Positions 1 to 56,020 of a DNA stretch of 64,000 bases are shown piece by piece. The stretch is from the NCBI GenBank assembly GCA_003971905.1, contig RSEE01000050.1:310001-374000 (forward strand). The letters are read 5' to 3'. This stretch comes from Moniliella sp. 'wahieum' (lineage: Eukaryota). The notes under the pieces are model-generated. The model was not told the origin of the DNA. It did no database searches and was given only the letters and a program-made list of their open reading frames with translations. Each line of letters begins with the position of its first letter. Position 1 is the first letter of the stretch. The position numbers and the translations under genes were made by a program.

Positions 1-1499
1 AGGGAAGATATCACCTCCACGTCGCCAACTCCCCCTCCTCCACACCAGAAAGCTTGTCTAAACAAGAGCAAGGTGGAGAAATAGAGATCGGTCAGCCGGC
101 ACAGCTACGGAGCATGTTAAGAAAGAAAAGAGTCGTCACTATAATGGTGGCAGAACCCACACCATCAAATACGACGCCAAATGAAAACCCGAAGGAGAGG
201 GGCAGCAGTACGGTCGGCGATGATCATGCAGCGCATCAGGCCTCCCTGTGAGGCCTCCTCAGCCTCAGGCCTCAGGGTGCTACGAGCAGAGAGATGAAAA
301 TAACACGAACGCTTGCTTACCGAGCTCACTCGGTACTCAATCAGATCGTCAGTTCGATTGTGCCATACCAGGTCATACCATGTATTTATACACTCCGTGG
401 ATGGGCTCAGAAACGGGGGGATTCGAGGACCATGTGTGTTGCTCAGTCCGAGCCTTGTCATACATCATGTTTCAACTGTAATGCGTAACGGAACGGATCA
501 TGCAGTACCCCAGCGTACGGGCGCTTCAAGCTTCAAGCTTCAAACTTCAGCGGTTATGCGAAGAGCGGCCACGGTTGGGGAAGCTTTATGATAAAGCAGT
601 ATCGGGGGGGCTCTCGGGGCTTGAACAACTAATAGTACCTAGTAACAAAACTTACTCCCGAGGAAAGGATCAAAAACGATAAGGCAAATCCATGCGCCCA
701 GGCAAAGCGGTGAGCGAGAGAGAGGACGGGCCTTTGGGGGCCAAGCGCCAAGCGCAAAGAAACAATTAGTACAGTCCTTTTGATATTCTTCTTTGTGTGA
801 TAGTAGATCGAACACGACGGAAGAGGCTACCTTCGAGACGTCTTAGTAGTTTTTCTGAAGATCAGTCCATTTAGTGAGCATTTCTTAGCCCATGTAGAGC
901 GGGAAAGAGGGAAGGTGTTACGGGGCGCTCCGGTTATCTCCGGACGCTGAGCCCCGCATGTCGTAGACATCTCAGCCCAACATGCGTCAGTCCGGTTAGA
1001 CTAGCGAGAGAGAGCCAGTTGACATGTGACATGTGACACCTTATCCTTGCTGCGGATATCATCCGCGGCCCGTCATGGTCGCATGGGCTTATCGGTACGA
1101 TGCTTTGTGCCTATTGCGCCCAGTCTTGTCAGAACCCTTCCTGCTGCGCCCGACTACGCAGCGTCAGCGCCTTGGGAAGCAAGGGCTGTGTATTAGTCTT
1201 TTCCTTTCTGGGAAGTGCCCCGCATTCTGTCTATACCTGTCATGAGGCACTTGTGGCCTGGTTCCTTCTGCTGAATATAAGCAGCCATGTCTAAGGCTTG
1301 CTAGCTGTGGTCCTTGTCGACCGTCCTGTCTATTACCGTTGGTCTCCCCGACTACCAGTTCCTCTCTCGCCCTTCCACCTTCTACCACCCTTACGCTTAC
1401 GAATTTACGACTTACGTCGAGTGCACTGCAGGCCGCGGTTACTCTCACCAGTAGCGCTTGCTCTTCTTTAGGACTCTGTCTGTTCCCGCCAGCTACAGC

Positions 1500-2140
1500 G
1501 TACCAAGTGTGGTAACGCTGTGAGGAACAGAGTAATTCCGGAGCTCCTGGACCCCTTCAGCTGGTCTAACGACCTACGTGCACGGCTCCTACCTCGGAGG
1601 GTCTGGACTGCGATATTTGCACGCAGGCAGCCACCCAAACTAGAAGGTCTCTCCCTAGCCTCTACACCCGCTCGGTTCAACCAGGATCTGGAGCAGGACC
1701 TAACGTACGAGCACCGAATGATCTGTCCAAGGGTTTATACCCCTAAACTACAGGGGGGGTCCCATCTCGGGACCCCCCCCATGACAGAAGGGGACGATCT
1801 GATAGTCGCGAACATGCAGCCATTGTAGCTACCCTCTATGCCAGCGAAGGCGAGAGTGTGTATTTTGGATTGGGGGGAAGGTGCGGCATTACATGCCCAT
1901 CCCCTTTATATAAAACACAGAGGACGTTCTGACGCTCTGACCTAATAGCACATGAAGCCCAGCCATCCCCCGATACAGCGGATTATGCACATGGGTGTGA
2001 TAAAATCCCTCCAGCGTGGAACGGTGGACCGGTGGCTAAGGTGGCGAAGGGGGAACGGTGGCTACGGTGGGGACCAAGCAAAAATCAAACACCAAGCTGG
2101 GGCGAAGCCCCAGCTGACCGGGCCGTAGGCCCGGTGGTCT
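1500..2140 (-). mobile_element. Non-coding TE-like relic carrying three perfect hairpins; has a diverged copy at about 11640-11780
   Basis: Perfect hairpins at 1753-1779, 2095-2115 and 2117-2135, and a TATA-like TTTATATAAA at about 1904-1913. The reverse complement of 1729-1748 matches 11644-11663 at 18/20, and patchy similarity continues for about 130 bp. No coding homology was recognised. Confidence 0.35.
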
Positions 2141-3447
2141 TATAGTGATCTCAATAAGCTCGGGCGGGACAGAAGAGGCCGATGGGGCGATTCAGCGGCA
2201 CGCAGCCGCGAGCAAGGTAGGAATCCATATCCGTAAGAGTCCGTGAAAGAAGCGAAGACCCCTTGGGAGAACGTTACAGAGGGCAGGCGAGAGTTTTCTG
2301 TTCTTAGTCCAAGTAGCACAGTAGAGATCGACATCGAACGGGATTACTCAAAGGGACTCTTCTGTCTAAAGGCAGGCGGCGCGTCAATAGCGGCAGCCAC
2401 CAGCGATATATAGACAGGTCATATCCGACAGCCTGCCGCCGCCCACAGGATGACGTTTCCTCTTAATAGATGTGACGACTTACTGAATAAAAAAAGGTCT
2501 TGGCCTTTCGTCGCGCAGGGACGCTACGGTCAACATAAGCCGAACTCAGTAGTCATTGAAGAGCCGAACCACAGAGACTTTGAATTGAGCCACTAAGCAC
2601 CAACCGGACGGAGCACAGACCACGGAAGAGGCGCGCACTTTGAATGTGTACAGCACATGATATAATGGATGACAGCATTACAGTTGGCATGCTGCCTCTC
2701 CAATTTTGTGGTTAGGCCCAGGTGAAAAAGAGTGCGGCAACACCACATGTCGCCAATGAGAAGTCCCAGCCACGGGAGCACTGAGGTCCTGCGTTATCCT
2801 GAGAAATTAGCAGTCATATAGACGGTCGCGTATGTTGGCATGCTGGAAGAGAGGTGGGGCGAGGAGGAGACACGGAGCAAGGGTGACGTCTCGTCGACTT
2901 CATGGAAAGACCGCCGTGGAGACTTGCTCGCGAGAAAAATGAGAAACTGGATGGCTTTGAGTGCCTGGGGATCCTCGTCGAGAAGCCACTTGAACAACAA
3001 CTTTCATCCAGCCCGGCCGCGAGTCAACAGGCAGGAAAGGCGGCGGCTTGATACGTTTTTGCCTTGGTGCTACACCGCTAAAGCTGCCCTGTTGCCGGGT
3101 ATTTGTGTATCTTCGCTAGCTTCAGCGCCTTCGGCACGCTACACCTGGTCCACCTTGGTTATCTGTTCGCCAGCTTGAATTTGAACTCATCCCACAGCAG
3201 GGCATTGCCTTTCGTTTCGCAGTCAGTCGCGCCAAGGACGTTCGCGTATTCGCACAGCTGGGATAGGCTGGGATACTTACGCGTCCCGCATCATGTGCAT
3301 CACGCATCATATATCCTACTGCCTCCGAAACATCATGCATCACGCGATCTAATGTGTTGGTACGTTGAGCTAGGTGACCTGTGACGCACGTGACGCGCGT
3401 GACGCGTGAATGCGAGGTTGCCATGGCCTTCGCACAAAATGGCATCA

Positions 3448-3503
3448 ACCCTAATGTTCGCGTCTTCAAGAGTGGAATTTATTGCGCCCTTCGAACCCTA
3501 CCC
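3448..3503 (+). promoter_or_regulatory. Homol-E-like (ACCCTA) ribosomal-protein promoter motifs
   Basis: ACCCTAA at 3448-3454 and ACCCTACCC at 3495-3503, 100-150 bp upstream of the RPS18 ATG. They resemble the S. pombe RP-gene Homol E box ACCCTACCCT. Confidence 0.4.
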
Positions 3504-3600
3504 ACTGTTCTAGTGCGACCGCACCCACCCGGACGCAACTCAGTGGGTGTGGACAAGTTGGCCAATTCCGCTAAGCTTACACACCCCAGTAATTGCCAAG

Positions 3601-4191: not shown

Positions 4192-6759
4192 ATTCTTGTT
4201 TGCTCCGTTACATGCTTTGCTGTACTATTCGTACGTCCCTGTTTGTTGGGGCAGGAGTGCCTTGTCTGTCCCTCTCTCTTGCAAACGCCGCTATGCCCAT
4301 TCCTCTCGATACTCCCGACCTCTGTACCCACCCCATCCCATCCCCAAAATGGCACATGCCTAAAGAGCCACCAGTCTGCCTGGCCTCCATCCATATAGCT
4401 GTCTCATTATTCCTGGGTCGGGTTGCACGTCGCCTTCATTGCCCTGCAATTCAGGGCATGATGCATCAACGTTCAACCTTGAAGCTTGACTATCAACAAA
4501 CTGCACCACTGGGTAATATGAAGAAGCTTGGCTATTTTGCTACTTGAGAGGGCCCTTCTGTTCTCGGTGTGGGAGGGGGGGCTGTCGGCAGTATCGGCCA
4601 ATCAACAAAAGCGTATACTATACTGAGTACTGAGAAACCTTGCGCCAACCCGAGAAAAGGTTGGAAGTGGGCCTACCCGGTTGCTCCGTGGATCTACTAG
4701 TGTTACCTAGTAACGCGCAAAGCGTGCGAAGTGCGGCAGGGTGCGGCCTGAGGCCTAGGGCTTCCGCCTCCCTAAGCCGATGGGACAGGGAAGCTCATGT
4801 GGCACGACATCAGATCCGCCAATCTTGCAAGTATCATGAGCGCTGAGTACACGAGTAGTTACTAATGGAGACTGAGTACTGAGTCCTGCTAAGTGTACAT
4901 TTCCGCATTCCCTCCCCCCCTCCAACCCACTTTAGGTATATATAGCAGTACCCAGCCTGCATCGGCGAATATGAATCAATCATGTGCAGACGCAGAGTAT
5001 CGGCAGCAGGTATTATAAGTGTTGGCGGAAGACGCGTAGAACCACAAGTACAGTCAAGGAGACAAATGATTCGTTGGTAGAAAAGAGCAGACATGTGGCT
5101 AGGAAGGAGATGAAGGATTGCTTATTGCGGATTACCTAAAGGCCTAAGGCATAACAGTAGGACCGTAGCACGTGAGTGTGACAGGTACGGATGGAGGAAG
5201 AAAGGGCAGAGCGAAATAGTCAGGCTCTGGCGCGAGGCGCCGAGGGGGCGGAGGACCTGAAAAGCCTACTACTACTGAGTATTGAACACCGGAAAACGGT
5301 TGCGGTAGTGTTGCAGCTATCGAGAGTCTCGCAGCTGAGTCACTCTCAAACACTGGCGCGACCTGAATCGGATAGGATGATGTGAACGTTGACGTTGATG
5401 ATCGAATGAAGCCAATCTGCTCATCTCCATCGTCGCTGCAAAGGAGGAATGAGTGGCAGCGTAACACGTTAAGCGTAACCGGTAACCCATCAAGTGCATC
5501 AAGGAGGCGTAACGCGTAACGCGTAATGTACGAAACAGATGTCAGACTCGGTGCTCATCGACATCATGCATCTGCATCAGGCCTCAGGTTGAGGCCGAGG
5601 GCCCCTCAGGCCTTAGGGCCCTTGGGCGGATTTCACGCGTGAGGCCACCCCCCTGAGTGACCGGTGACCACCTTGCTCTGCCACCAGTTCCAATCCAGCG
5701 CCTCTTAAAAGCACGCTGGCGTTCAGGTACTATAATCGAGGCAAACGACGTATCAATCTGCCAGGGTGTGGTGATGCCACATGAAGTACATCCAACGCTC
5801 AGCATGCGGCAAAGGCTTAAGGTCCAAGGTCCCCTTTTGTTCAGCTCAACATTCAACACGCTCAGCGTTGGGGGTTCGGCGCTCTGATAGGCCCTAGGCT
5901 CTGATCTGCTTGGCGAATTGGCGAGCGTCCTGAGCCCCAAAGGCCTGAGGGCCTCAGCCTGACGTGTGCGGAACGCTGGCGTCGGGGCGCATGAAGCTTG
6001 AAGCTTGAAGCTTGCAGTCGAGACTATGGTCACATGGTGCATCACACACAGGTGCATGATTCATTTTGCCTGCGTTGGACCAGGGTAGGCCACTGGTAGA
6101 CCAGGGTAGGTGCCCCTGCGCAAGTCTTCATCGACAACATTCGCGCGAATTGTTATATCTTGGTATGGAAGTGGTCCTGTGCTGGTGTCTAGTAGCTGAT
6201 AATCGATAACGCTTCGATACCTGCGTCATTTGCCCGAATGGCCGAAGACTGCTCTCACGCTGCGAAGTTTTCCCCGCGAACGGGGTGATATATTGGGGTG
6301 TTTGGGCGGTGGGGCCGAGACAGCGTCCGAGGTTCAGCGGCTCAGCGCACTGAGCCTCAGTGCAGAGCCGCTCAGCTTGAGAACTTGGACGCCCTACTCA
6401 GCGGCGGAGGGCGCACAGCCTACTCAGCCGAGGCAGTAGGGGAGTCCCCGCTGCGGTTCGAGAGGTAACCGGTAACGCGTAACGGCAGAACGCCTCTGGT
6501 CCTGGTCATGCATGACGAATGATGAGCGCTGAGCCAGCGAAACCGCCCGCAGCGAGAGCTACGGGCCTGCTACGGCGCGCCACGATAAGACAAGCCCCAC
6601 TCTCCACAGGGGGTGTGAGGCGTGTGAGGCATCAGCTGATGATGCTTGTTGGTTCGGTAGGAATACCGTGGCTGAATATGGGGCCTATGCCTCTCGTCTC
6701 AAACAGTTCGGCCTGCCCCCGTTCACTACTCACTTCCCTACCATCACCACACCAACATT

Positions 6760-14136: not shown

Positions 14137-17099
14137 CGTTCCAAGATCGAGCACGGCGCGAACAAAGGGAAAGAAAGCGACTCAAACAACCGCCAGAGTG
14201 GGCGGGTGAGGTTTGATGGGCTGTTTGATGGCGTCGTAGTCGCCTCGGTGGACAACGCCAGCGGCAATGTTACCTAATCCTCAGGTGGGCCATGTGTGAT
14301 ATGTTTCAACTGTTCAGCGTTCATTTGAACGTTCAAATTCTCAGAGACGTCCCATCCCCGGCCCCTTTATTCATTTCGGGGCGTTTTGCAGGGCATTGCA
14401 TGAGAGGTCGCGCGGGAGCTGATCTTCCAACTTGTGCGCACCACCGGGTACACATATTTTCAATGATGCGACGGTGGAGGAAGACGAGGAAAAACTGGGG
14501 GGAAGCAAGACCAGACGCACGGACAAGCGAGAGTGTTGCCGTGTGACACCAGGACATCCTCATTTGTATAGTGAGTGGCTCGGGTCCAAAAAGGAGGCCA
14601 TGAAGGTCACTTACAGGCAAATAGCATGCGAGGAGACGGAACCCCTTGGGCAACGCCGCGAGAAAGGGTGCATGGACTGGTGTGGAGCAAACGTAATGAT
14701 GCGACAAGAAAATACCAAGTATTATCAGGGACGCACTCGCGACCTGTCCTTAATTCCCTCTGGCCATGGTGACACGAGGAAGGTAGTACTATGTCACACA
14801 CCGTCGAAGACGGCCAACAAGATGTTTGAGCACATGAAGAATCTTACTGAAGAGTCTCATTGGAGATGGTTCTTCGCTCACATATATGTCTTTCAAACTT
14901 ATTCGTATCCACTCACACTGCATCCGGTTTTGGGAAGCAGCTGTGGCGGGGGACAAGAAGTTCTGACGTGTGCGCGACTCCACTGGCCTCCTCTAGTTAT
15001 TTTGGTATACGTGTAAGCAGCACATGCCGGCTCATATTGAGCGAGCTCGGTAGGTGTAGCATTTCGCTATCCCTAATATCTTACGCTTTGCAAATGATGA
15101 TAGTTATCAGGTGTAGTACCGGACATGTATTTAACCCTCGCCCCAACAATGGTTTACATCGTCGATTGGGCACAATTAAGGCAAGCCATCTCAATTCGCT
15201 TTGATGAAACGCTTGAGAGAAGCTTCAGGAGTCCTTCATTGGGACTGTGTTCGAGGTACCACATCTCGATCTCTAATGATATCATTGACAGAGAGCTTAA
15301 GGCTGAGACAAAGAAACGCTGGGCCTAAACTGTTGACCTGTTAATCTGGTGTGCCTTACTTGTTGGCGTCAAACCCCTTTAGGAAACCAGAGAAACCGCC
15401 ATCAGATCAGGACTGCAACGGGTGAAGATTAAGTCGCCTTGATCAAGTCGCCTTGTACAACCACCTCCAACCCCTTATTGTCCCTCTCGCTTCTCGGCTT
15501 CTCTCTCCCCCTCCTCCTTCCATCCAGCGACGGGGGTACAGGGCAACCCTCTTCTCATTCGCACGCCCCTCTGGTCCGAGTCAAAGTCGTCTTGGGAGCA
15601 GGGGAACGGAGGAGGTTCGGCGCTGTTGGCCCGCTGGCCAATGCTCGCCTCTTCTGGGACTTGGGGAAAAGTATATGAGCTCCGCTGGCCCGCCTGCCAA
15701 CGTTCGCTCGCACGAATACAAGGTCCGGGGGACTGCTAAGAGGATCGGCGCTCTCCGCTGGCCCCCGCCAGTCAGTTTTCACCCGTCACAAAAAGGGTTC
15801 TTGCGTGCGAACCCGGGTACTATATAGACGTTCTTGTCCCATTCAGATTATTCCAAGAGTCGAAGCAGCTTCTTCTCGTGGCGTTCCAATGGCGTCGCGG
15901 TGCTCTTCTCGTGTACCACCCTTCCGTACGCAGACAGCGCCTCCCCGTTCCCGATCTCCACAAAGTGAGGTCTTTCTCCATTCTTTATCCTCCGAAGGCT
16001 TCAGGTCTCAACACTCGGTAAGTAGTCAATACGCATCGTCATATCCTTCCACACCTCGCCCCATCATTGTCCCCCCCTTAGTCGGCTTGTGGATGTGGTA
16101 GTGGGGGATGGATCGCCCCAGTGGAAGAATGGGAACCTCATGAAATGCACCAAAATTGGACTGGGTGAGGCTGAAGCCATGATGTGCTTAAGCGCGGACA
16201 TGACACGACACACTGGCCCATGCTGTGCGTGGAACGGCACAACAAGGTGCGGAGTTGGAGACCAATCTGAACCTTCTTTGTTTGTGAGCCGAAGGCACAC
16301 AGATCATGGGACTGAAGAGAGCCAGGTGTGATTCAGCGCGTTGCTGTGTGCTCGACGACATTGCGACCGTCGGCATCGTCGAGCTTCTTGGGCACTTCCT
16401 TCCGGCTCTTCTCCCACCTCCCCTGACAGCGCTTGGGCCGCGTCGTAAATGCGTTCGTCGTGCGTGCGTCTAAAAAGGGGGCAATAAAAAAGTGGTAACG
16501 ACTAATAAAAGAGAGTATTAGCCGTTGACCTCATTAGCGGGCTGCCGCATCCTCCCATTCAAAGAGGCAAGCTCACGAGAATATGTCAAAGTCATCGTTC
16601 GTCGTGCCTTGGGAGTTCTATTTACTTCGGATCTGTGGGAACTCCGTGCAGATGAATGCGTTAATCTCGTGGCCAGCATTCCTTTAACATCTCCTTTCGC
16701 CACTTAGTGTCGCTCTTGATACTTCACGCAACAACTTTCCCCGCTCCTCCCTTCCTGCTTCGCCCCCGCCCATTTATTGGTTCTAGCACTACGGTTCGCA
16801 CCATCCACCCTCATCGATCATCAGGCCTCAAGGGCCTCAAGCGCCACTACATGTCTCAAACGGAATGCACATCGGGAGAGTCGCACTCCGTCCGAGTCAT
16901 TTTCTTGCATAGAATACTGCTTTGGCTATGAATGTCAGTATTCGGTACAAGTATACTCGATTCGTACAAAGTGTATTAGTCACAGCCGTATAATGCTCGG
17001 TCTGAGCACTCTCTGAGCACTCAGAGATGGGTGTGACTGATGGGATGAGTATTACTCAGTAAATCCTCTGTATTTCTTATAGTCTCCCTCCCATCATCT

Positions 17100-19250
17100 T
17101 GTTTTTTTCATCGACCATCGATGATCGATCGATCATCCCCACTGCTGTTCTGTTCTTCCAACTCTGGCCTAGGGCCTCAGGCTGAGGCCTCAGGTCTCCT
17201 CGGTCTCTTCGGCCTATCAGATGCCGGCAGTCGAGAGCAGCAATCTAAGCCCTCTTGTATCCCTTCGATCGCATCCATAGCCCCAGAAACGGGCCAGGCC
17301 ACAGTGTCTCAACAGGCTTCAGGCCCTCGCGAGCCTCTTCGAGAGGTAGGTCACATCAAATTAATCTACCCCTTTTCTTCACGGTCTTGGCGTTGTGATG
17401 CAAGCTAATACTACTAGTATGTGTTTAATGCAAGTTTTTTTGAGCGCTCTCTCAGAACGATTAAGAATATCAGTGGTCCGGAGGGCTCAAACTTCCACCA
17501 CAGGCCATCTTTTGTTCCACCTTTCGCCATCCCGATACCACAGTAGGTAATCAAGTGCGAGAGGTCTCAGAAAATCGATAGGGGTCGATTATTACTGCAG
17601 TGGCGAGCGTTCTCACATGTTCAGGCTCAGGCTGGGCGATGAGTATACTGAGTGAAAGTAGAGAGAGGAGCAGCGGCAGTGAGGAGAGGGTGAAAGGCAG
17701 TGAGATAACTCTGGGTATATGTCTCTCTCCTTTGCAGCCCATTGCGATAGGAAGTTGAGGTGTGAAGCTTGAAGCTTGAAGCTTGAAGCTTGAAGCTTGA
17801 AGAGGCCTGAGCCTGAGCCTGAGGCCCTGAGGCCCTGAGGCCTAAAAGGAGAGCCTTTGCCTGTCCATCACCCACACTCTGCAGTATCTTTTTCCTTCCC
17901 CCGTTACGCGTTACGCGTTGCGCGTTACGCGTTACGCGTTATCAGGCGTTACATATGTCACTCCTCGTTTGCAAGTTACATGCCCTATTACATCCGCCAT
18001 ATGCTCCCCCCATCTAGTACCACAGCCTGCCACAGCCACATCTTTTGCCACAACGGAAAAATGGGTCAATGTGCTCAACGCGCTCAACGCGAATCGGTCC
18101 ATGCCCCGCCAACGTCCAACGCTCCGCCATGGTCAAGCCGGTTAGCGCGTAACGTCGTCTTCTTAGATCTTACTGCACGCAAATCCTACAGATCATTGAT
18201 GCATGATGCATGATGCAAGCAGTTGATGCAGTTGATGTTACCTCCAGACAATTACGTTACACACGTACTGTATGGTTTTCGATCGATCTCACATCTCATC
18301 TCCGCGCTCTCAGATCTCAGACCTCAGATTCTTAGATCTCATGTCTGACACGTGACGGGCGACGCGTGACGCGTGACGGCCCTTGTGATCACCGATCATC
18401 GATCCTTACCAAAGCCCTTTAGGCCTTAATTAGGCTTCCTTAGGTCTTATTACATGTTCCTCCCTTGTACCATGTACTGCATGTACACCCTCTTTAAATT
18501 TGACCTCCGACGCCCACACGTGTGTATACATTGGTTTCTTCGAACCCCTGTATCTCCCCCAACAGGTATGGCTTTGCCTGGTATAGGCATGATGTGCATG
18601 ATGCATCATGCATGAATTTGGAAACCTGCCGCGGCCTCCTGCCGGCCTCCTGCCTCATCTTCAAGCTTCAGGGGCATCATGCCATTCACAAGCAGACCAC
18701 CACCACCACCACCGTTGGATTGCTCTATGTAGTACTTCTCCAGGGGTTCCCTTACAGGCTTCGGCGAACGTTCATCTGGCCTTAGGCCTTACCTTAGGCT
18801 TAGCTTGTTGTACTTGTAGGCCGTGTTTTACAGGCCCCTTTTGTACACAACTTTTTAAGCTTCACACTGCGCCTCATTGATATGGAGGGGCTATCCCACG
18901 TTCAAGCTTCAAGCTTCACGTAACGCGTAACAGTCTTCAGTATGCTCAGGCCTGAGCCTCAGGTTCCAAATGTTCCTGGTGTATATAAACCTCCGAAAGT
19001 CCGCGACATTATGGCCTGCGACGCCGCAAAAATGTCTCTCAGACGTTACTTCTTCCGACTCGCCGTCTGCATGAAGCTCAAAAGCGCTTTTAGGCTTAAA
19101 CTTATTCGCGCTCTTAAGCTCTCAGGATCTCAGATCTCAACAGATCTCAAGCATCAAGCCTTCGTCAGACCTCAGGGTCAGGTCTCATGTGCGCTCCTTC
19201 AAGCTTCAGTCGAGCTTCAGTACTCAGTCTGAGTACTCAGATCTCAATAT
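17100..19250. repeat. Cluster of short 7-bp (TNA + 4-bp palindrome) tandem repeats
   Basis: (TGAAGCT)5 at 17763-17797, (TTACGCG)n at 17902-17941, (TGATGCA)3 near 18197, (TCAGATC)n at about 18309-18340, (TGACGCG)n at 18361-18377, (TCAAGCT)n near 18902. Confidence 0.9.
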
Positions 19251-21049
19251 TCAATTCCGAAAATTCCTATACACATCTCGATACTTCTGCAGTCTATGGT
19301 TTCTTGATCGTAACCTGATGAGACCTGGAGTCCGGATGGTCCTCGAGGGTGATGCAATCGCACTGATGGTGGTGGTGGTGGTCTAAGCCAACCAGCAACG
19401 CCTACTGAGGAACATCATGCAGCGAGTCGCCACCAGGGGCTAAGCTGCGGAGAACAAGGAAAAACAGGAGAGAAAACAACGGAACTCCTAGGCCTGAGGA
19501 GGAACTGAAAGGACATTGGCCAAATCACGAGCCACCCGGTGGCTCAACATAACCTCTTGTGGGAGGGCGGGAGGGAAGCGTTTCGCGGCCACTGATGAGG
19601 CGCTGAGGTGTTGAGTAGGGACCAAGAGGGTTAGGAAGCAAGCAATTAAGAAAAACTGTACCCATCATGATGCACCCTAAAGAATACCTGTGTAATGCAT
19701 GTAATGCTGCTACGTCGTTACCTGTGGCGGCGTCTGACGCGGCTGATTAGTAGTAATTGTGAAAAAGAGTTACAGACCCTAGAGTTGCCGCGCCCAGACC
19801 AGCAGATCACGTGTATACACTCTGTCCCACTGTTGCTTGTACTGCCCTATTCTCCTTCTCCTTTTCTCTTCCCTTCATAGTACCTATCGCTCACCTTGTT
19901 GATAGATTCTCACTCGCTGATTGTCATTGTCGCACGGGCATGGCCACTCGGGTCACCGTACATGGTTTAACGGGTCATATCATCAAACTTGGTTGGACTT
20001 CTCAGTGCGCTCTACTGGGCATGTGTAGAGCAGGCGGGACTTAGCTTTGATCAGGCCATCTCATATCCAACGCAGCCCGTACACACTGTGATCGTTCTAT
20101 GTACTTTATAGAGACTAGGTGTTTCCCAGGCCAGAGCCTAGCTTGCGCGTTGCCAGTAAAAACGGTAAAAGAGAGGCCAGGAAGCTGTATATCTAGAGCG
20201 CGTCGTAACTAACTTGTGACTGATAATTGTTGCGGGACAGCTCTGTTGGTGCACGCATGGTACATTTGCCTTCCTCCACCAGTGCAAAATGCATGGGTTT
20301 GCTCTTGGTATGTGTGTGGTTCACACATAACCAACGAAAATGTCTAACCAGCTGGTATAGCGTCCAAATACTGTGGCGCATCAACAGCCGAAAGTCTGGT
20401 TCCCTCTCCCCTTTTATACAGTAAATCATATGCACCTATCCCGTCCCCACGGAAGGCCAAATAATATTCTTGGTGGCTTCCGTACTCTCGTGTATACATC
20501 ATCCAGCTAAGTACACCAACTCTAGCTGCCTGGTCTCCCAAACAAATGCCCTCCTTTGCATACCCGTACACCCAACCAGTGCCCAAAACGTGCAACAGGA
20601 GATCTCACAGGCCCTATAGGGTCGATGGGGAATGTTGACGACTTTTTGAGACTGACATAGATGTGATGCTTGTGGTCCTGCAACTGCTCCGATCCCGGAT
20701 CTCGATAGCGCGTCCCCTGGCCAATATGCAATAGACAACAGTAAGGTGTTTGATACCCATTGGAGCCATTCTTTCCCAGAAACTACCACCCCCGCGGACA
20801 GCAAACCTATACACCGTAACGATGTAAAAATGCAAGGTGTTTACCTTTGCTAATCGAATGCTGAGTGGCATATATTGACGCATTGATACACCTGAATGTC
20901 TGAGTGTTTCTTTTGAACTGAACAGCCGTTTTGAACTGCTTTTAAATACTGTTTCTTTGCCCCCCTTAGGCTCTCTGTCAATGATACGGTCCCAAAATAG
21001 AGATATGGGAGGATGTAACAGTCGGGCTAAACGAGGGAGACCAAGGTCC

Positions 21050-21192
21050 TGTCAGAGGCGGGGGGAAAGGCAGATCGTTCGTGGGAGGAAACAGAAGGCA
21101 TCAGGCAGAGAACAGAAGCAAAAGGGAAGGGAAGAGCGAGAGACACAGGATGCGGAATTGGAAATTGGAGCGAGCTTAGTCATTCGGTGACA
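21050..21192 (-). mobile_element. Solo-LTR-like fragment related to the Gypsy 3' LTR at 28.8 kb
   Basis: 21086-21192 (GAAACAGAAGGCATCAGGCAGAGAACAGAAGCAAAAGGGAAGGGAAGAGC..GGAAATTGGAGCGAGC..GGTGACA) aligns by eye with 28790-28883 and ends at the same GTGACA terminus. No target-site duplication was seen. Confidence 0.5.
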
Positions 21193-21489
21193 GAGGATGG
21201 TCGATGACCTTAACGATCTTAGTTATATTGTTGTGGTAGTGCCTATCGGCAAAAGATCGACTACCAGTCTACTAGGGGTACGGAGATCTTTGGGGAGCCC
21301 AGCCAGAAGCTTTAGCGGCCGACCAGGGGGGAAGGGAGGTGGAGAGAGTCTTGGGCGAGAAGTCAAATTTCAAAGGTGAGGGGCCTGAGGGTTAGACGTT
21401 AGGGTTAGGTCTGAGGGTCTGGGGGCCAGACGCACTGATGTGCTGACGCGCTGACGGCAGAGGCTGTGCTGTGGCTGCGGCACTGTCGT

Positions 21490-24000
21490 AGCCACATGCA
21501 CATGTCATGCATGTCACATGCCGTGTCTTGAAGCTTGATGCAGTGGCATGGTTCCGTAGCGCGGCCGTAGCCCACAACAAAAGTAAAAGGGCCAAATCGG
21601 GGGCTCAACGTACGTGCTCAACGTCAACGTGTTCAACAGTCCGCTGCAAAGCCGCATGCCCCTGGGACCTGATATACTGATACTCCATGAGATCTGAGAT
21701 CTGAGATCGATGAGGGGATGGGCCGGCCTTGGGCCTTGAAGCTCTTGAAGCTTGAAGCTGATTCTCAGATCTCTCAGATCTCAGTACCCCCAGGAAACCC
21801 CCAGGAACTCATCAGCACTATCAGCAATAGTATCAGTTGCTCAATACACGTCCGTGAAGCTAGTGACTAATGACTTAATGACTACCTCAGGCCCCTGGGC
21901 CTGAAGCTTGAGCTTGAAGCTTGAAGCTTGAAGCTTATCTTGAAGTCTGAACTCGCTGACTATCGTCGATGATCTCGATTATCGATTATCGGAAGCTGGA
22001 AAGGTTGCATCAACAACGTTATCGATTATCAACTAACAGAGACAGAAGAACCTAGCTTGTTTCCGCTTCATTATCATTAATCATTGGTAACCGGTGAAAC
22101 CAGTAAAGCTAGGAATCGATAATCGGTACCCGGTTAAACCCGAGAGCTCACATGCGCTCTAACAGAAAAGGGCTGCAGTTTCTCTGCCTATGATGAACAG
22201 TAGGCTGTCAGGCTATGGATCTGGGGCTTGCTGGGGCCTGTCCTGCTGCATGTAGCACGTGCAATAGCAGCTGTAACATGTAATAGGCTATAGTCCGCCA
22301 ACGGCCTCAGCGTATGAGCTGAGCGCCAGCGAACTGACCGTTGCACCGGCTCAGCCAGAATGGGCTCTGGCCGAGTACTTGACTGGGAATTGCCAGGCAT
22401 TGATTGATCGCCTGGTGCACAGGTTCTAACCCATGCACGTTGCTCTCGTCGATCTCCTCCTTCCCCACAAGCATCACAGGCATCACATGTCACATGTCAC
22501 ACATCACGCGTCACGTGGGTCCTGGTCCAATTGGCACGTGGCGTGTGGCACGTGGCACACGATGACCCATTCGTATAATCATATCACGCGTCACGCGTCA
22601 CCTGCCACCGATGATTGATCATACATCATCGACATCATCGATCATCGATCATCGATCACCGTTCATTTGGTCACACGTCGCCGCGTCACCGGTCTCCGGT
22701 CAGTGAGACTTGCAGCATGCCACTAGCCTCGAGACTAGCCCCTCTGCCCTGATGCATGATGCATGATGCATGATGCATGATGCATGATGCATGATGCTGA
22801 TGCATGATGCATGATGGCATGGCATGCATGATGCAGGAGGACATGAGGTGCATGAGGATACCAGAATGGGTGGATGAACTCGATGAACGTAACAATGATC
22901 GATGAACGATCGATGAACGTTGAACGGTGGATGCTTCTCAGGCGCCCCACTAGGCACTGCAATACATACCACGGTCGATCGAGATTGATCTAATTAAGCT
23001 TGACAGATCTGCGATCACTTCGAGCTTGAACAGCTTGAACTTCAAGCTTCAAGCTTCAAGCTTCAAGCTCAAGCGATCCGGTCGCCGGTCGCCGGGTCAC
23101 ATGCATCACGCGTCAGGTGTCAGGCTAAGGCCTAAGGCCTAGGCTTAGGCCTAAGGTCCCACAGGCATCAGGCCGTCAGGGCCTCAGGCCTCTACACGTA
23201 ACGCGTAAACTGTTGACTTCTTCAGCGCTGAGCCGCTTAGCGCTTACGGGTTACCGGCTAAGTGCGCACGGAGCCTGAGCGGCTCAGCGGCTGCGCGCGC
23301 AGCGCTGTGCGATGCATGTTGCATGTGACATGTGACATGTGATGCATGATGCATGATGCACGATGCATGAGGCCGAGGCTCAGTTCTTAGGCCCATTGAA
23401 TATTGAGTAACTGAGTACTCAGACTGAGTGGTCTGAAGCTTGAAGCTTGAGGCCTGAGCATATCGACGTCGAACGATGACATTGAACATTGAACGGTTGA
23501 ACTGAACATAGATGGTACGTTGATGTGCGTTGATGTCTGGCTGCCGTGCCCACCGGCCACCATTCATGTCGCCGTCGGCACCGAACTGAATCGTCCTTGA
23601 CCTGCGACAAGGCAATTCCAACACAGCTCTTATAGCCCCTCCCACCGTTCCGCGCTCAGCCTCAGTGTCAATAGGCTCAATACCGACGACACTCAGTGCT
23701 CAAATGAGCTGTACTCTTCGTTCACAACGTTCAACGTTCAACGTTCAACTGAACGTTGAGTTCAACAGAGCCTGAACGTTAGGCGCGAGCGCTGAGGCTC
23801 AGCGCTCAGGCTGAGCAGTAGTGCCAGCTCGTTCAGCCGCTCAGCCTGAGTGAGCGCTCATCGCGCGTTCGCACGTTTCTTATTCTCCTAGTTGGCATAG
23901 ACCCGCGACAATTGCATGCCTATTACTCAGGGTGTGAAAGTCTTTGGATGCATTCGATCCACCAACGCACAATATAGCCCTTAGGCCTTAGGCGTTATGC
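21490..24000. repeat. Densest cluster of 7-bp TNA+palindrome tandem repeats, upstream of the Velvet gene
   Basis: (TGAGATC)3 at 21688-21708, (TCATCGA)3 at 22635-22658, (TGATGCA)6+ from 22750, (TCAAGCT)4 at about 23042-23070, (TAAGGCC)n at 23126-23156, (TGACATG)n at about 23323-23342, (CAACGTT)3 at 23725-23745. Confidence 0.9.
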
Positions 24001-33035: not shown

Positions 33036-35320
33036 GGACTGAGGACTGAGGACTGAGGACTGAGGACTCCTTCTCTCGACAAATCTTTATAGGATCAAAA
33101 CTTGGACAGGGGGGATGAGGAAACGTAACCGGCGTTACCGGCGGCGTAACCATGACTGCCCCCATCAATTTCTTCCGGCGCGCAGCCTGTGAACACGCAC
33201 ACAATTATGTACACCACGCCAATAATTAAAGTTCCTCCTCTCTTACGTGCTTACGCTCGATCACTAACAAAAGGGGTAACCGGTAACCGGTACCGGTAAA
33301 CCCGCGATAGTCAAGGTCTGTCAGGGCTTCTCTGACGCTTATAACGCGTAACGGGTATTCGGTACGGCCGGTGACATGTGACAGATGGTGTGCAACGTCT
33401 ATCATATATCAGGGCCCATATCTATAGGGGTTATACCGGTTATTGCCGGCTTGACTAGTGACTGTGGTCACTTGACCTACTGTCACACGTCACGGTGGCC
33501 GCAGTGAAGCTTGAAAAGGAAGCTTGAAGCTGGGAGGGAGACGGGAGCCCACAGAGAAGAAGGCGGAAAGTGGTGATGAGAAACAATTATGCCATTTGGG
33601 GGCGAGCTTCAAAAGCTTCAAGCTTCAAAAACTTCAGCCGCCAGCGCTTAATAGCGCCAACGTGTCCAACCAGCAACTCCTTCGCGATCGATGAGCATGA
33701 TGATCGATGCGCCTCATCGCTGAGCCGCTGTGAGCAACACAACATGTGTCACATGTGACAGGTGTGATACGATTGCCCCGTCCCGAATGCCCCACGATCG
33801 ATCTGGGACGTAGTGTGCCAAGTGTGCTCGATAAGCACACCATTACCGGCGGTCTACCATTCTCTGCAGAGGGACAAGGCTGGCAACCTACCCCCAGTTG
33901 CGGGCAGATCTTAGAGCGACGCCCCTGAGCCTCAGGCACTCAGATCCCTCAGAGGCTTGAAGCTACCTTCAAGCTTCAAGCTTCAGAGCTTCAGAGGTCC
34001 CTCTCTCGGATCTCAGTCTGAGATCTTAGACCGTACTGGCAGCTCTGCAGTGCAATTACAGTTATACATGTTGCACGTCGTTCTCTCGGTGAAGTATAAT
34101 ATAGGTCTCGTGAATTTCATTTGTAACATGCTTTCTTCCTTGCAAAGCACACGCGCCGAATGAGGGATGGTCGATGAGTCGACGAGGCCTGCCTGGGGCC
34201 GACCCGAGGTCAGCCAGTCTAGTGCGAACCGTTTCTGCCTATAATGCCTCTTGTAAAATGATGTGGATGGCCCTTTTCTTTCGCATTTTCACACATGTGT
34301 TGTGTGGAGATCTCAAGTTTGGATCGAGCGCCACACATGCATCATGCATCATCCATTGAGAGAGTGTGTAGTGTGGTAGGTGTGGATACCAGAGGTACGA
34401 AGGAGGGGTGGGGGTGGGTGGGCATGTGGAGCATGTGGATACCATCTAAAGTGCCCCCACCACAACGAGGAGGTCGACTTGGATACGATTGTGGAAAAGG
34501 ACAGCAGTACTGATGGCGCGATTGCATTCTGATATGGATGGTGGCTGAGCCGCTGATGATGGAAGAAAAACGGATCCGTGATCCTGAGATCTGGGAGGCC
34601 TTAGCCTTAAGGCCTTACTGTGTGTGGCCTGAGCCTCAGGTGTGACGGTGCCGCGTGACCGACATGTGGCAAGCGTCATACAGGCTGTGATGTGCGTGAC
34701 ATGTGAGAACCGATGAGTGACCCCGTGACAGAGCGAATGTATCACATTCGGATCACACCAGCACTTGTCCCAGCCACACGCCACCATTCCACCTTCGCCG
34801 CAGGCGGCCGTAGCGCTGTTAGTCGGATGCCTGGTGTGGGAGCTTGCAACTTCTCCCCGTTTAAAGTCTACGGCCTTAGGATCTTAGGAGTTAATCGTTA
34901 CGCGTTACGCGCGTTGCGCGTTACTAGTTATAGCCCCTGCAACAGTTGGGTGCGTCACACAGGCCATATGCCGGTGCGGACACATCACCTACTGTCACAC
35001 TATCACATGTGATGCATGTGATTCCCATTCTAATTCTACATTTTAGCCCAACTGAGGGCGGGGAGTACCCTCCATACTCAGTCTGAGTACTGAGCCTCAG
35101 TCTTCAGTGGCAGAGCGGGATGGTGCATCTCGCATCATGCATTATGCATCATGCACCAAGCTTCAAGCTTCAAGGCACCACAGCGCACATGTTGTCTGTC
35201 GCATGTCTTAGATCTGAGTCCCAATACGCACTGGGCCAGTATGCAGTACGGTCCCCAATGTATTTTGACACAGACACAGTGCCCTGTGTGACATGTGACG
35301 CATGTGACCAAGGATGCTGT
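33036..35320. repeat. Cluster of 7-bp tandem repeats upstream of WC-1
   Basis: (TGAGGAC)4 at 33036-33068, (TAACCGG)n at 33275-33299, (TCAAGCT)n near 33610, 33970 and 35160, (TTACGCG)n at about 34897-34924, TGAGTACTGA at 35084-35093, (TGACATG)n near 35288. Confidence 0.85.
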
Positions 35321-36556
35321 CGGGTACTGCAGAGCCAAATCTTAATCATGAATCATAGATCAACTGCGGAGGGCAAGTGTGGTAGCTCCTTGGCAGTCAT
35401 AGCGACCCCGTGCAAGGAGCACCTCCGGAGGCGTATAGCGATCCGAAGGCCGTCGATGCCGACGCACGGCCATTCACCGGTCACCATGCATCCGAGCTCC
35501 ACGTTTGCATGCTCTCTCCCAAGCCCTTCTCTTGTTGGAGCCGAGCACTTTCCTCTTTCTTGCCACCGCTGTGACCATCGCTGCTCTCCTCTAGCACACG
35601 TCTCTGAGGCACATCTTTTCGCTGCTGCTTTCGCAGCTGCTGCTGTTGGCTACACCTCCTCAGCCCAGACACGCCGCTCCGACTCCTTCGCTTCGCCTCC
35701 CTCTTGCCTACCCCTTCTAGCCGAGCGTCCGTCAACTCTTTCTGACGCCCTCGAAGACACTCTCAGTGACAACGTTCTGCCCCTGCTTTTGAACGCGAGC
35801 CCCACTACCGATCTCCCCCGCCCACCTTCCACTCCCCTCCTCTTCCACCCTCTCACCCCTTTCTTCTCCATTTTAGGCAGCCGATTTACGCTCTGCCGCA
35901 ACTCCCCTCATCCGTCTTAACAACTCCCCCACACACTTCCACAGCCTCGACCCGTCCCGTCCCGTCCCGTCCCTATCTCTGATTCCATTATATTCTCTTC
36001 CTTTCGCCTCCTCTCGCACCCCAAGAATTTATCCTGAAAACTCCAGCCATTTCAGTGCCTAATACTCGAAGACGGCAACGAGCTTCTCTGTTTTGATACT
36101 CGTTGTTATTTTGGCCACTTGATGACCCACTAAGCACATTTCTCTCCAGCTCTCTGACCTTCCGTATGTCTCACTTCGCGAACAGATTCGCTTCCTCTGC
36201 TGTTGTCTCCCTCTTTATTGCTCAGCCCATGATTGACCCTTCATTTCCCTCATCTAAGGATTTCGTCAAGGTCGTCTCAAGGTGTCCTTTGTTGGCTTCC
36301 TCTAGAGAATCGTGCTTCTGCTCTAAACTCCCCCTCAACGCACGTATTTGGTTGATTTCACCCGCTTTTCGGCCTGCTTTGACACGAAGCTTTTTTGCCT
36401 GTACTTTGCTTCCAGGGCCTCCCTTCGGTAAAGTACTTCTTTTTACTGTTTCTTTTTTGGCGTCCGGTATCGCTACGCCTCTCTATTACGACTCCCAACC
36501 CTCTTCTCCACCCGTATTCCTTTCTCCTCCCATCCTCCAACATTCAAAGCTTAACC

Positions 36557-48562: not shown

Positions 48563-49626
48563 GGTGGCAGGAGGGAGAGGGGCAGAAGGCGATGGTGGGG
48601 CGGATGGTCGTGCCGGGGATGAAGGTGTGGGGGTCGGGACAAGCCACAAGCCGAGTGCCCGCGACCTATGGCTGGTTGTGGCTGGTGGGGCTGGGGAGGC
48701 AGGATGCTAGCCAGATAGAGGGGTCCTAATCCAGAATCATCCATCGTGAATATTGTTCCGTCGAGATTGCGTCCACTGAGGGCTATATTCGGTACTGAGG
48801 CTCTGGCAGTAGTACTCAGGGAGTGGCCCGAGGCTCCGGCCTGAGCGTCAGGTTGGGCCAGCTGGTTGTGCTAACTTTTTGGCGACGGGGGGGGCACGCG
48901 GATACGATCGATGGCCAGCGCGTAGGTCGCTTTGGTCTTGGTGTTCGTGTGTGTGGCGTGGCTGCTCCGCCCAGCTGGTGCGGCCTTGTGACCCGCTCGT
49001 GCTCCCCAGGCTGGGCCTCAACGTCATCGAGGTCACCGGTCACCGGTCACCGGTCATCCCATTTACCGTCGACATCATCGACCATGCGCGAGAGTGACGT
49101 CATCTCTCTGCCCCGCCTCGACCATCCATGCATCCATGCATCCATCCATCCATCCAAAATCCCCTCCACGTGGCTGCGACCCGGGGGAACTGGCGGGGAT
49201 ACTGGCAGCCGCTTAGCGCAGGCTGGCAAGGGCTGGACATTGGCAGGGTGAGGCGTGTGGGGGAGCGCAGGGGAGCGCTGGGCCGGTGCGGAGCTACTCT
49301 CTGCGGTTGGGCCACCCTCCTTGCATGCTCAGCGCTCGCTCACTCAGTACTCACGTGTCACAGCTCACAGCTCACAGCCCCCAGGAGCTGCGGCACAGTG
49401 CTGGTGCGCAAGCTGTGGCGAGAGCTGCACGCGGGGGGCACACTGGCGCCTGCTCTCCCGGCGCCAGGCCCCACCACGCCCCGCATCATGCATCCGCCAT
49501 CACCGACCAATCATCCACAGCAGCGGGGGTGCGGGCGGGAGCGGCGCAGAGCACCACACGCTCCCAGCCCCATCCATCCAACCACCGCCCGACGCCCCGA
49601 CCCCTCCCCTCCACACCTTGCCCGCG

Positions 49627-50188: not shown

Positions 50189-50480
50189 CGACCCTCTTCC
50201 TCTCGACGTTCTTTGCGTCGGATCCCGATGGCTGTCGGGCATGGCATGTATTCACCATGAACCCCCCCCCCCTCACCTTCCCCTCCGCATCAATTGGTCT
50301 CTTCCATCCCACCTACGTACATAGGAGTCGGTATTTGACTCGTAGTTTTCTCGTCACTACCCCCCCCCCCCGCCCCCCAAAAAACTACACACCATGTCGG
50401 CACCCCCCCCCATCTGCTCCATATACAGGCACAAGTGACCAAGCAGGAGCCAGCGTTGAATTGGCAAAAAATAGCGCACA

Positions 50481-52469: not shown

Positions 52470-52921
52470 GGTGGAGCGGGCCAAGACGATCGATGGGTCG
52501 AGGACGGGGGCGACAGCTTCGATGGGCAACGCATCCATGCCGGGCGACGAAAAATCATCAGCACTGTCCCAGCCCTCGCTCGCACACCTCTCCAGCCGGG
52601 TCGAGGGCGGAATGCGCCGTTCCGCCGGGGCACCTCGCCTGCTGCCACCGCAGGGCCGCGGGCGGAATGGACCAGCTTCCGCCCGGGGCGGCCGTGTCCG
52701 AGTCTGCGGCCTGAGGCTCTAAAGCGCAGCGCTCCAAACCACCGATTCTGCAGTCGGGGGGAGAGCGCTCCGCTGCGGCTGACGTCAGCCTGGTCTGGCC
52801 AGAGGGCGGGATCATCGATCATCGATCAGCGGTGGCTGATGCTCAGGAAGCGAGCAGCCGCCCCGGCCCCCTTCTTCCATTCCCCCACCACCCCCACTCA
52901 CCCCCACGCACCCTTGCCCCC

Positions 52922-54037: not shown

Positions 54038-54294
54038 GGAGGAGTGGGATGGCGTGTCCGAGCGCGGCCGGTCCTCCTCCTGTGCTTCCCCTTTTTTTTC
54101 TTCTCTATCGCTGTGGTCGCGCCTTCTCGGCTACTTCTGCATCTCGTATCTCATGCTGCAGAACAAAAGATCAAGGCTTTTTGTCTCTTTTCCCTTGCCT
54201 CTAGCCAAAAGACCTACCCCCTCCCTTAACCTTTCTCCCACACATTTTGATCGTCTCTTTCAACCTGTTAGCCCTTATCATCCTTTTCTCTCTC

Positions 54295-54425
54295 TTGCCC
54301 CCTCCCCTCCCTCCCCTCCCCTCTCCTGTCCTGTCCTCTCCTCTCCTGTCCTCTCCTCTCCCCTCTTTCTCCCCCTCTCCTCTCCGTTCTACCCCCTGTC
54401 CCTCCCCACTAATCTCCTCTCTCGT
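54295..54425 (+). repeat. Polypyrimidine/(CCTCT)-like low-complexity tract downstream of the SR gene
   Basis: About 130 bp of nearly pure C/T with CTCTCCTGTC and CCTCT repeats. Confidence 0.75.
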
Positions 54426-56020
54426 CCTTGATCGATTCTCGGCGGTGAAAACGGCAATGATGTGCTCCAAGTCCCAAGTCCCGTGTGTGAGAACGGTGAC
54501 GTTTCGCGTGTTTGTTCCTCGATGTCGATACTTTCCACCCATCCTGCGTCTTTTGCTCGTATTCGGTCGTATTGGGGGGCGGGCAAGCGGATGGGCGGGC
54601 TGCTGCATGCTAGCCAGCCTTGCTCTCGTTCTCGTTCGTATCCTCGTCTGCTATTCGTATCATCATCGTTCGGCGGGAAGGAGCAGGAGGACAGAAGGTA
54701 CAACGGCCCGTGATGGACGCACCCAAGTCCGTTCGTCCCGCCCACCCTCGTGTCTGGGAAAGAGCACGGAGGCGGGATGCGCGCTGAGCTGGTACGGCCT
54801 GGTATGGCTTGATCGTGGTGCGAGAGGGAGAACGGGATGGCAGAACGTACTTATCGAAAACTTGACACGCGCCTTGCGATGATGCTTTCCCATCATGCCG
54901 TGGTACATGTTCTCGGTGGAAGAGCCAACTGCCTTCGTGGGCGGGACGGGCGAGGCGAGCGAGACCAGCGCACTGGACACCTAGGAAGTGTGGTGAACTG
55001 GGCAGGCGACAGACGCACGCGAGCAGGCCGGGCTCGGGGTTCTGACGCTCCCTCTGTATACTGACCCGGTAGACGAGCATTCTGTTTTGCCTTGGGCGGA
55101 CTGGGCCAGAGAAAGATTGAACCGAGGCTCAATACTCTCAGGTACGTTCCTGCGTCCCTGCACCCCCGACTTGATTGATCGTCGGGAGCGTGGCTATAGT
55201 GGAATGATATGGAAGGGAAAAGGGAATAGGGTAATTAATCATTGTATCCTGGAACTTGCTAGAACCCCATCCCTTTTCATCTACTGTGATGCATGATGCG
55301 ATGCGAAGGCCGAAACGTTCATTGGGGCACAGGAGAAACGGTCTGTGAGACGTTTCCCTCCTTTATGAGTCGCCGTGATCTCACAGCCCGGAGTCACTAG
55401 TCACTCTCAGTATCCCCACTAGTCACTACCCATGGTAAGACAGAGAGGCTATTCGATTCGTACTTCATCGCCTCCGTTCCTGCGCCTCCCCATGTCCATC
55501 TTGTTGAGGAAACCTGTTCCACATCGACCCACAGCGGAAGCCTGGCAGCTTCCTATCTCTTGGGTATGGGTTTGAGGGCGAGATGGACCACTTGCCGCCT
55601 CTCTTGGTGATTGAACGTTCGACCAACCGAGCCGGTGTCGACATCATCGTAGCTCAGTAACGGTTTCGAAGGTGGTGGGGGGGGGTTGCCCGTCTTTCGC
55701 GCTTTCGCCACCGGCTCAGCGCTCGCCCTGAGTCGGCACCTTGTCTTTCCTATGTACAGGCCTGAACCCTGAACGTTGAACGTCGCATGCACCTATGAAC
55801 CTGGCTGAAAACAAAAACATTCAAAAGCAGCAATGGGCTTGGTGAGATTCTGACCAATCACTAGAATCACTGATCATCATCACCGATCCAATTGAGAACC
55901 TCCAGCCGATCGTTGATCGGTGCAACGGGACCAGGCCAAATTTTTTGATTGGAGGGTTCTGACGCTTGCCGTCCCACTCCCCACCGCCCACACCATCAAC
56001 CAACCAACGTGAGCCACCCG

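Follow-up and report, generated by a model that had tools for sequence, protein, structure and literature searches.

Background

In fungi, excision of Ac/Ds elements leaves target-site copies, deletions and P-nucleotide palindromes, which arise through the formation and opening of hairpins, and the Artemis-related protein Pso2 has been implicated in the footprints formed in yeast (PMC5873905). The same report distinguishes 28 different footprints among 128 excisions; according to it, the palindrome in hAT scars has its centre at the complement of the base that adjoins the element. Two basidiomycete groups of transposons with 7-bp target-site duplications (TSDs) are presented in PMC12730594, namely hAT7 in the Pucciniales and Kyakuja, of the KDZ group, in the Agaricomycotina; the word Ustilaginomycotina does not occur in the main text of that paper. 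Transposases related to PIF/Harbinger are known to target the triplet TNA (PMC4482050), and an excess of heptamer repeats has been reported in bacteria (PMC4692102). In this work we analysed a 64-kb stretch of fungal DNA (hereafter the window; positions 310,001 to 374,000 of contig RSEE01000050.1, Moniliella sp. 'wahieum'), in which many short tandem arrays have 7-bp units composed of TNA and a 4-bp palindrome. Their signature is mutational and consists of a 7-bp duplication, resembling a TSD and centred on TNA, together with additions resembling P nucleotides.

A shared grammar in period-7 repeats

Perfect tandem runs with a length of at least 2p+3 were collected for each period p and compared with 20 dinucleotide shuffles. 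Period 7 gave 34 runs (749 bp) against a mean of 0.0 in the shuffles, and periods 6, 8 and 9 gave 2, 5 and 1 runs, respectively. Period-7 rows were also numerous in the output of Tandem Repeats Finder. A run was taken to fit the grammar when its unit, in some rotation, was TNA plus a 4-bp palindrome (pal4), a form that 448 of the 16384 heptamers (2.7%) have by chance. This was the case for 104 of the 227 perfect period-7 runs of at least 12 bp (hereafter named grammar runs), for 46 of 69 with at least 14 bp, for 30 of 34 with at least 17 bp and for 14 of 16 with at least 21 bp, with binomial p values from 1e-20 to 1e-98 across these length classes. The TNA + pal4 pattern is real and far above chance.

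The pattern was also evident at the level of single words. TNA preceded a pal4 398 times, against 181.9 +/- 11.1 in 50 block-wise dinucleotide shuffles, and it was the only enriched one among the 16 XNY triplets, the other 15 occurring at 0.81-1.15 of expectation. An enrichment of about twofold was seen for odd palindromes with TNA at the centre and for 6-bp palindromes whose outer pair is A..T; no enrichment was observed for 8-bp even palindromes. The combination TNA-core-TNA was present 140 times with the same N (2.6 expected) and 17 times with complementary N (2.3 expected), and the spacing between TNA + pal4 words showed peaks at 7, 14, 21, 28 and 35. N was G or C in 75% of the words. Since TGA and TCA make up 72% of all TNA triplets, N follows availability and is not chosen. 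Runs of at least 14 bp formed by a 6-bp palindrome plus one base, with an outer pair other than A..T, numbered only 2 of 69, and period-7 runs lacking TNA were in mild excess (71 against 40.4 at 12 bp or more, and 16 against 3.0 at 14 bp or more). Chains of two or more units amounted to 41. No clear rule was found at the flip junctions (n=17). In a set of 46 arrays there seemed to be a significant strand polarity, with N divided into purines and pyrimidines, but it vanished in a larger oriented set (G 14, C 13, T 5, A 2).

An initial annotation of the window, made from the sequence alone, had already pointed out that many unlike units obey this rule. The 16 strings that it quoted were all found where it had placed them, and the 30 of 34 runs mentioned above bear out the rule itself, which falls short of being universal because the other 4, such as the GGACTGA array, do not follow it. 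The enrichment over dinucleotide-matched shuffles for which it had suggested a test was present in the window. Its estimate of 13 palindromic cores out of 16 was too low, as all 16 occur as TNA-core-TNA, whereas the in-phase changes it had described were recovered as 13 core switches and 6 flips of N among 62 adjacent word pairs. It had also argued that slippage of one seed would not produce a grammar shared by many cores. An ordinary one-seed microsatellite has an arbitrary unit and starts from chance seeds, whereas here two thirds of the runs of at least 14 bp (46/69) share one grammar and the seeds exceed the chance number more than fiftyfold (140 against 2.6), in agreement with that argument.

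Cores copied from the flanking bases

In the following, the site is written ab-TNA-xy, with primes for complementary bases. The length distribution of the grammar runs had its peak at 12 bp, and only two starting phases formed this peak, T with 12 runs and y' with 15, while each of the remaining five contributed 2-3. The minimal 12-mer has the form TNAxy-y'x'-TNAxy, or its mirror, in which a 5-bp direct repeat encloses a dinucleotide that is the reverse complement of the two bases next to it. The same boundaries were present in longer arrays of 19, 26 and 40 bp, and altogether 34 of the 104 grammar runs were bounded in this way, against 4.2 by chance.

The origin of the core was analysed in the 84 isolated TNA-core-TNA elements. 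In 65 of them the half-core was identical to the adjacent flank dinucleotide (both flanks 13, left only 30, right only 22), the chance of at least one match being about 12%. Once short periodic runs had been masked, isolated TNA + pal4 words, odd heptamer palindromes and A-pal4-T hexamers occurred at chance level, with ratios of 0.99-1.19. This indicates that the palindromes did not pre-exist and expand later, and that they arise together with the duplication.

Period-9 and period-11 relatives

Forty-seven period-9 runs of at least 16 bp were found, against 4.1 in shuffles, and 23 of them fitted the form abTNAxy plus two palindromic bases complementary to one end (chance share 6.6%). Exact 16-mers with a non-palindromic 7-bp repeat (W) start at 5488, 22842, 22873, 27248 and 55856. 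A period-11 form was rare; in it two palindromic tetramers are retained, each identical to its own flank (30727). A comparable use of both sides was visible in the core switch at 6464-6485, where the first core corresponds to the left flank GG plus its complement and the second to the right flank CG plus its complement.

When the elements were sorted as excision footprints, class p2/d2 received 80 and 86 counts, class p2/0 received 8 and 10 (0.00 expected) and class p2/p2 received 1. With ANT, CNG or GNC as the centre, no count exceeded 3. Several footprint states coincide inside palindromic arrays, and for this reason it is the flank matches in isolated elements that are informative. Two marks of an excision footprint were thus observed: direct target copies flank the junction, with 5 bp in the 12-mers and their boundary class and 7 bp in the period-9 class, and the flank next to the junction reappears in the junction bases as its reverse complement.

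Repeats with other periods were seen at two places. Directly after the (TGAAGCT) array, at 17805-17842, three copies of GCCTGA are followed by three copies of CCTGAGGC. Their periods of 6 and 8 around the same TGA suggest that the process also has variants that differ in junction length. Eight-bp arrays with units GGGCAGCT and GCTGAGCA, in about 7 copies, lie at 43034-43093; they contain the palindromes CAGCTG and GCTGAGC and are located in GC-rich DNA near open reading frames (ORFs) of unassigned function. These arrays may be related to the grammar with a period of 8.

Distribution and gene context

The coordinates of representative elements, of the three islands in which most grammar runs are clustered and of a degenerate retroelement are collected in Table 1. 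Only 4 grammar runs were located in the retroelement stretch between 24 and 33 kb, and 10 in the gene-dense part from 36 to 64 kb, all of the latter in intergenic positions or at ORF edges (e.g. 49031 and 52810, between divergent ORFs). Coding avoidance was assessed at the level of ORFs, not of full gene models. None of the 104 grammar runs was inside Pfam-supported ORFs (8,787 bp; 14.3 expected) and none inside ORFs of at least 300 amino acids (16.5 expected), so that the apparent avoidance of coding DNA noted in the initial annotation was confirmed by this ORF-level test.

Table 1. Coordinates of repeat elements, islands and retroelement remains in the window
Feature	Position	Strand	Remarks
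Array (TGA AGCT) x5.7	17763..17802	+	From T of TGA to TGA+AG; boundary class TNAxy..TNAxy
Array (TGA TGCA), about 12 copies	22750..22835	+	Longest array; small indels
Array (TTA CGCG)	17902..17941	+	One unit altered to TTG
Array (TGA CCGG) x3.7	49031..49056	-	PRPP-synthetase gene on one side, eIF5A-like ORF on the other
Array (TGA TCGA) x2.7	52810..52828	-	Between divergent CCCH zinc-finger and RRM ORFs
Minimal 12-mer TGAGC-GC-TGAGC	6523..6534	+	One of 27 twelve-base elements, TNAxy-y'x'-TNAxy or mirror
Minimal 12-mer TGACT-AG-TGACT	33452..33463	+	Rare core CTAG
Exact 16-mer W-P-W, CATCAAG TG CATCAAG	5488..5503	+	TCA-centred; the two joining bases are the reverse complement of the first two of the right copy
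Exact 16-mer W-P-W, GATGAAC TC GATGAAC	22873..22888	+	
Exact 16-mer W-P-W, AATCACT AG AATCACT	55856..55871	+	Palindromic bases from left copy
Period-11 element GT TGA ACGT ACGT TGA AC	30727..30744	+	Both 4-base palindromes present, each matching its own flank
In-phase core switch GG TAA CCGG TAA CGCG TAA CG	6464..6485	+	
Non-grammar heptamer array (GGACTGA) x4.7	33036..33068	+	Does not fold
Main island	16800..24000		ORF-poor; 51 grammar runs >=12 bp; 11.7% of bases
Second island	4400..6700		15 grammar runs; 8.8% of bases; between ribosomal S13-like fragment and amino-acid transporter gene
Third island	33000..35500		16 grammar runs; 8.9% of bases; far side of degenerate retrotransposon
Degenerate Ty3/gypsy-type retroelement	28700-32300	-	Stop-broken; ORFs 29079-29483 and 30021-30446; reverse-transcriptase RNase H domain, integrase zinc-finger fragment

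The closest matches of the phosphoribosyl pyrophosphate (PRPP) synthetase ORF were proteins of Tilletiaria, Malassezia, Melanopsichium, Sympodiomycopsis and relatives, the top match showing 80% identity over 55% of the query. Such protein matches point to a basidiomycete of the Ustilaginomycotina as the source of the window, in line with the basidiomycete origin guessed in the initial annotation. Host genes recognized by Pfam encode an amino-acid transporter, Vps55, a PAS protein, Ysc84, a mannosyltransferase, the PRPP synthetase, CCCH and RRM proteins, Utp14 and a RhoGEF. The ORF with PAS folds (38130-39461, plus strand) may encode a white-collar-type sensor of light or oxygen. The segment from about 15 to 36 kb has few ORFs and contains degenerate Ty3/gypsy pieces. 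The degenerate retroelement listed in Table 1 lies between two heptamer islands and is itself nearly devoid of heptamer elements.

Apart from the arrays and one retroelement-like pair of 47 nt (12017-12063, 79% like 30350-30396), no larger dispersed repeats were found in the window, which indicates that the arrays are not pieces of a copied element. No matches to Rfam were obtained in the window at gathering thresholds. Other simple repeats were a (CCAT)x8.8 microsatellite at 49122-49156, near a (GGTCACC) array in the intergenic region between the PRPP-synthetase gene and the eIF5A-like ORF, and C-rich, homopolymer-like tracts with few interruptions at 24903-24951 (28 C) and 50360-50378 (19 C). 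Repeats of 12 and 21 bp, at 53563-53610 and 53699-53741 in a segment with about 70% G+C, overlap RRM-domain ORFs and are probably coding repeats.

Excision scars as a possible origin

In order to account for the signature, its TNA specificity, its statistics and its placement, we propose a stagger, a hairpin step, a joining route and, as their source, a transposon. By analogy with described footprints, a direct repeat of the target together with flank-complementary junction bases is what hairpin-forming transposon excision would leave. No protein could read a rule that admits any palindrome, and such a rule is the hallmark of complementary-strand copying; the restriction to TNA is that of an enzyme with sequence specificity. 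The explanation that we prefer, while holding it tentatively, is that the heptamers are mutational scars left by the excision of a cut-and-paste transposon, or by a transposase-derived nuclease, acting with a 7-bp stagger and hairpinned flanks. The part of the initial annotation that proposed a mutational process with a hairpin step is supported by the flank-built cores, the run boundaries and the chance level of isolated words; what it had missed is the direct repeat resembling a TSD, the period-9 sister class and the clustering into islands.

According to this model, a site ab-TNA-xy would be cut with a 7-bp stagger centred on T-N-A, which would leave one copy of the heptamer on each end, in the manner of a target-site duplication. 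Covalent closure would turn these ends into hairpins, and their opening about 2 nt from the tip would leave self-complementary 3' overhangs of 4 nt, xyy'x' on one end and b'a'ab on the other. Joining of one overhang to the opposite recessed 5' end, with loss of the other overhang, would give ab-TNA-xyy'x'-TNA-xy, a net gain of 7 bp. If the whole second copy were retained, the product would be abTNAxy-y'x'-abTNAxy (+9), and retention of both overhangs would give +11. A further hit would add exactly one unit, because the TNA of the scar lies in a perfect palindromic heptamer and its overhangs are identical and can anneal. The arrays might grow by such repeated hits or by ordinary slippage aided by their ability to fold back. 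The most likely agent would be a cut-and-paste DNA transposon that makes 7-bp TSDs and hairpins the flanks on excision, or a nuclease derived from one, and the existence of islands could be due to local hopping of this agent. The footprint spectrum agrees with the hairpin model with a 7-bp stagger, and both the +11 element at 30727 and the core switch at 6464-6485 use the two flanks as the model predicts.

Several observations weigh against an origin as excision scars. Neither elements with terminal inverted repeats flanked by TNA or by any 7-bp duplication (the only matches were of arrays with arrays) nor a transposase domain (in a Pfam scan of 227 ORF translations, which gave only host genes and Ty3/gypsy remains) were found in the 64-kb window. 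The sequence TNATNA, expected if both overhangs were lost, was not enriched (59 against 47.6), and 19 of the 84 isolated elements match neither flank. For excision scars, 104 runs in islands of about 12 kb in all would be a very high density. The 41 multi-unit chains are far above the number of random double hits, and thus a preference for scars or slippage must be added to the model as a further assumption. The spectrum of outcomes is narrow, with P2 plus a 2-nt loss being dominant, in contrast to the varied footprints reported for Ac/Ds, the junction palindromes are even, so that hAT7 is not a simple fit, and the ancestral states were inferred and not taken from outgroup sequence.

If the scar explanation is correct, the window holds an unusually clean natural record of one break-and-repair pathway, with more than 100 events in 64 kb, each of which displays its target, stagger, hairpin-opening point and joining choice. 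It would then follow that excision scars, besides polymerase slippage, can seed and shape microsatellites, and that the target rule of a transposase can be legible in a genome that no longer shows the element locally. The signature, abTNAxy growing by 7, 9 or 11 bp, can be counted and searched for in other fungi in order to find the responsible element and date its activity, and for annotation it explains a large share of the intergenic tandem repeats in this genome. In its most extended form the proposal would be that a new TNA-centred, hairpin-forming cutter, belonging to a transposon lineage with 7-bp duplications or representing a domesticated transposase, is the main creator of microsatellites in this fungus, writing palindromic heptamers from the dinucleotide adjacent to the cut, preferring its own scars and filling non-coding islands with self-complementary lattice DNA, which may have been co-opted as a structural element should the islands mark regions similar to centromeres or origins; in this form we regard it as doubtful.

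Alternative explanations

The main rival to the scars is a process based on replication only, in which heptamers are duplicated by slippage or by microhomology-mediated tandem duplication, foldable units are expanded, and template switching at quasi-palindromes keeps the cores palindromic. Six of the seven bases of such a unit are self-complementary, with a TNA triloop at the tip. We consider this route unlikely, even though several results speak for it. When folded as DNA, the grammar arrays give hairpins with TNA as the loop and a single mismatch in each unit (z from -1.8 to -4.3), whereas the GGACTGA array does not fold; 9 of the 13 in-phase core switches consist of the change of one symmetric base pair, against 40% by chance; period-7 runs without TNA are in mild excess; and heptamer arrays are frequent in bacteria as well. 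However, replication leaves TNA unexplained, since units with other centre pairs would fold equally well and yet account for just 2 of the 69 runs mentioned above. A plain 7-bp duplication would give runs of at least 14 bp instead of a peak at 12 bp with new complementary bases, the pre-existing palindromic seeds that expansion would start from are not enriched, and the stems available at the first event have only 2-3 bp. Furthermore, the bacterial heptamer arrays beside (TGAAGCT)n are off-grammar (see below). Selection, the other option put forward in the initial annotation, would act on TNA half-sites 7 bp apart or on cruciform DNA, either as the binding site of a protein or through an effect on chromatin, in promoters or in a centromere-like, gene-poor island. 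The position of some arrays between divergent genes (49031, 52810), the coincidence of the largest island with about 20 kb that have few ORFs and hold remnants of retroelements, and the phase maintained across core switches speak for selection. Nevertheless, we found no support for it and deem it improbable, although conceivable for the large island: an arbitrary palindrome is unreadable by a protein and none of the 16 cores is missing, words that stand alone are no commoner than by chance, N follows availability, single 12-mers form the majority of the elements, and the flank rule is indicative of copying, not of convergence on a motif.

The target triplet itself brings in scars of PIF/Harbinger type, with a 3-bp TNA duplication and a 4-bp core made of two bases left by each inverted terminal repeat, and the NuwaII group, which is also present in fungi, indeed has TNA duplications with any N (PMC4482050). 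This origin is nonetheless very improbable. The duplication is not confined to TNA, since the repeat reaches 2 bp past it in those 65 isolated elements and comprises 7 bp in the period-9 class, and TNATNA is not in excess. Sixteen cores would require many families with different termini, C-TNA-G is not preferred (loci by first core base, A 25, T 19, C 34, G 25), no miniature inverted-repeat transposable element of this kind was found in the window, and mPing excision sites are reported to be repaired precisely (PMC4561436). A derivation by hand from 3-bp scars of the PIF/Harbinger-ISL2EU-Spy (PHIS) superfamily failed to reproduce the elements. Nothing in the sequence suggests a sequencing or assembly artefact, and such an origin is hardly credible: the elements combine perfection with diversity, they occur only in non-coding DNA (Pfam-supported ORFs contain 0 of the 104 runs), and they follow a flank-dependent rule that no base-caller error model known to us would produce.

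Comparison with known systems

Period 7 alone is not special to this fungus. (TGAAGCT)3 was present in at least 121 bacterial stretches, many of them from Pseudomonas, Stutzerimonas and Xanthomonas, and the bacterial repeats resemble the fungal ones in their period and in the change of unit along the array. Strings of this kind, with a unit changing along their length, were seen at the bacterial loci L001-L121, e.g. L062 (2433-2620), L025 (2405-2523) and L039 (2499-2594). Units in these and other genera included AAGCTGC, CAAGCTA, GGCTTGA, AGCTTGA, GCCTGAC and ACGCCTA, many of them sharing AAGC. In contrast to the fungal arrays, the neighbouring bacterial units (AAGCTGC, AAGCCAG, GCTTGCA and others) are not TNA plus palindrome among the matches listed, where only 3 of 142 neighbouring period-7 runs at 121 loci fitted. 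Hence, the bacterial arrays follow a different rule, and it is the grammar, not the period, that distinguishes the fungus.

Among transposons, the NuwaII group of the PHIS superfamily has in common with the fungal elements a T-N-A target in which N is free; its duplications, however, are 3 bp long and its preferred site is C|TNA|G, whereas the repeats described here have 5-7 bp and no preference for C..G (PMC4482050). hAT7 and Kyakuja, the latter with termini CA..TG, make 7-bp duplications in the same phylum (PMC12730594). No copy or transposase of either was found in the window, and the comparison with them is one of TSD length, not of target consensus or scars.

The nearest published idea is the filling of spacers with direct repeats by transposon visitation, formulated for ribosomal DNA (rDNA), in which non-coding spacers accumulate duplications through insertion and imprecise excision (PMC10319768). 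As described there, the rDNA-spacer repeats differ from the fungal elements in that they show neither a palindromic rule at the junctions nor a constant period nor a particular target triplet. Neither this grammar nor a 7-bp TNA-centred target was found described in the literature searched, whose coverage does not extend to most subscription journals.

The footprints of Ac/Ds and other hAT elements, and the P nucleotides of V(D)J type, share with the fungal elements the joining of target copies by short palindromic additions copied from the flank (PMC5873905). The fungal elements differ in their 7-bp TNA-centred repeat, in having one dominant outcome, in being stacked to about 12 units and in the absence of an element from the window. 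Their junctions are even (xy|y'x'), in contrast to the odd symmetry of the hAT type, and a derivation by hand from offset hairpins of hAT type with a 7-bp duplication failed to give the 12-mers or the 16-mers.

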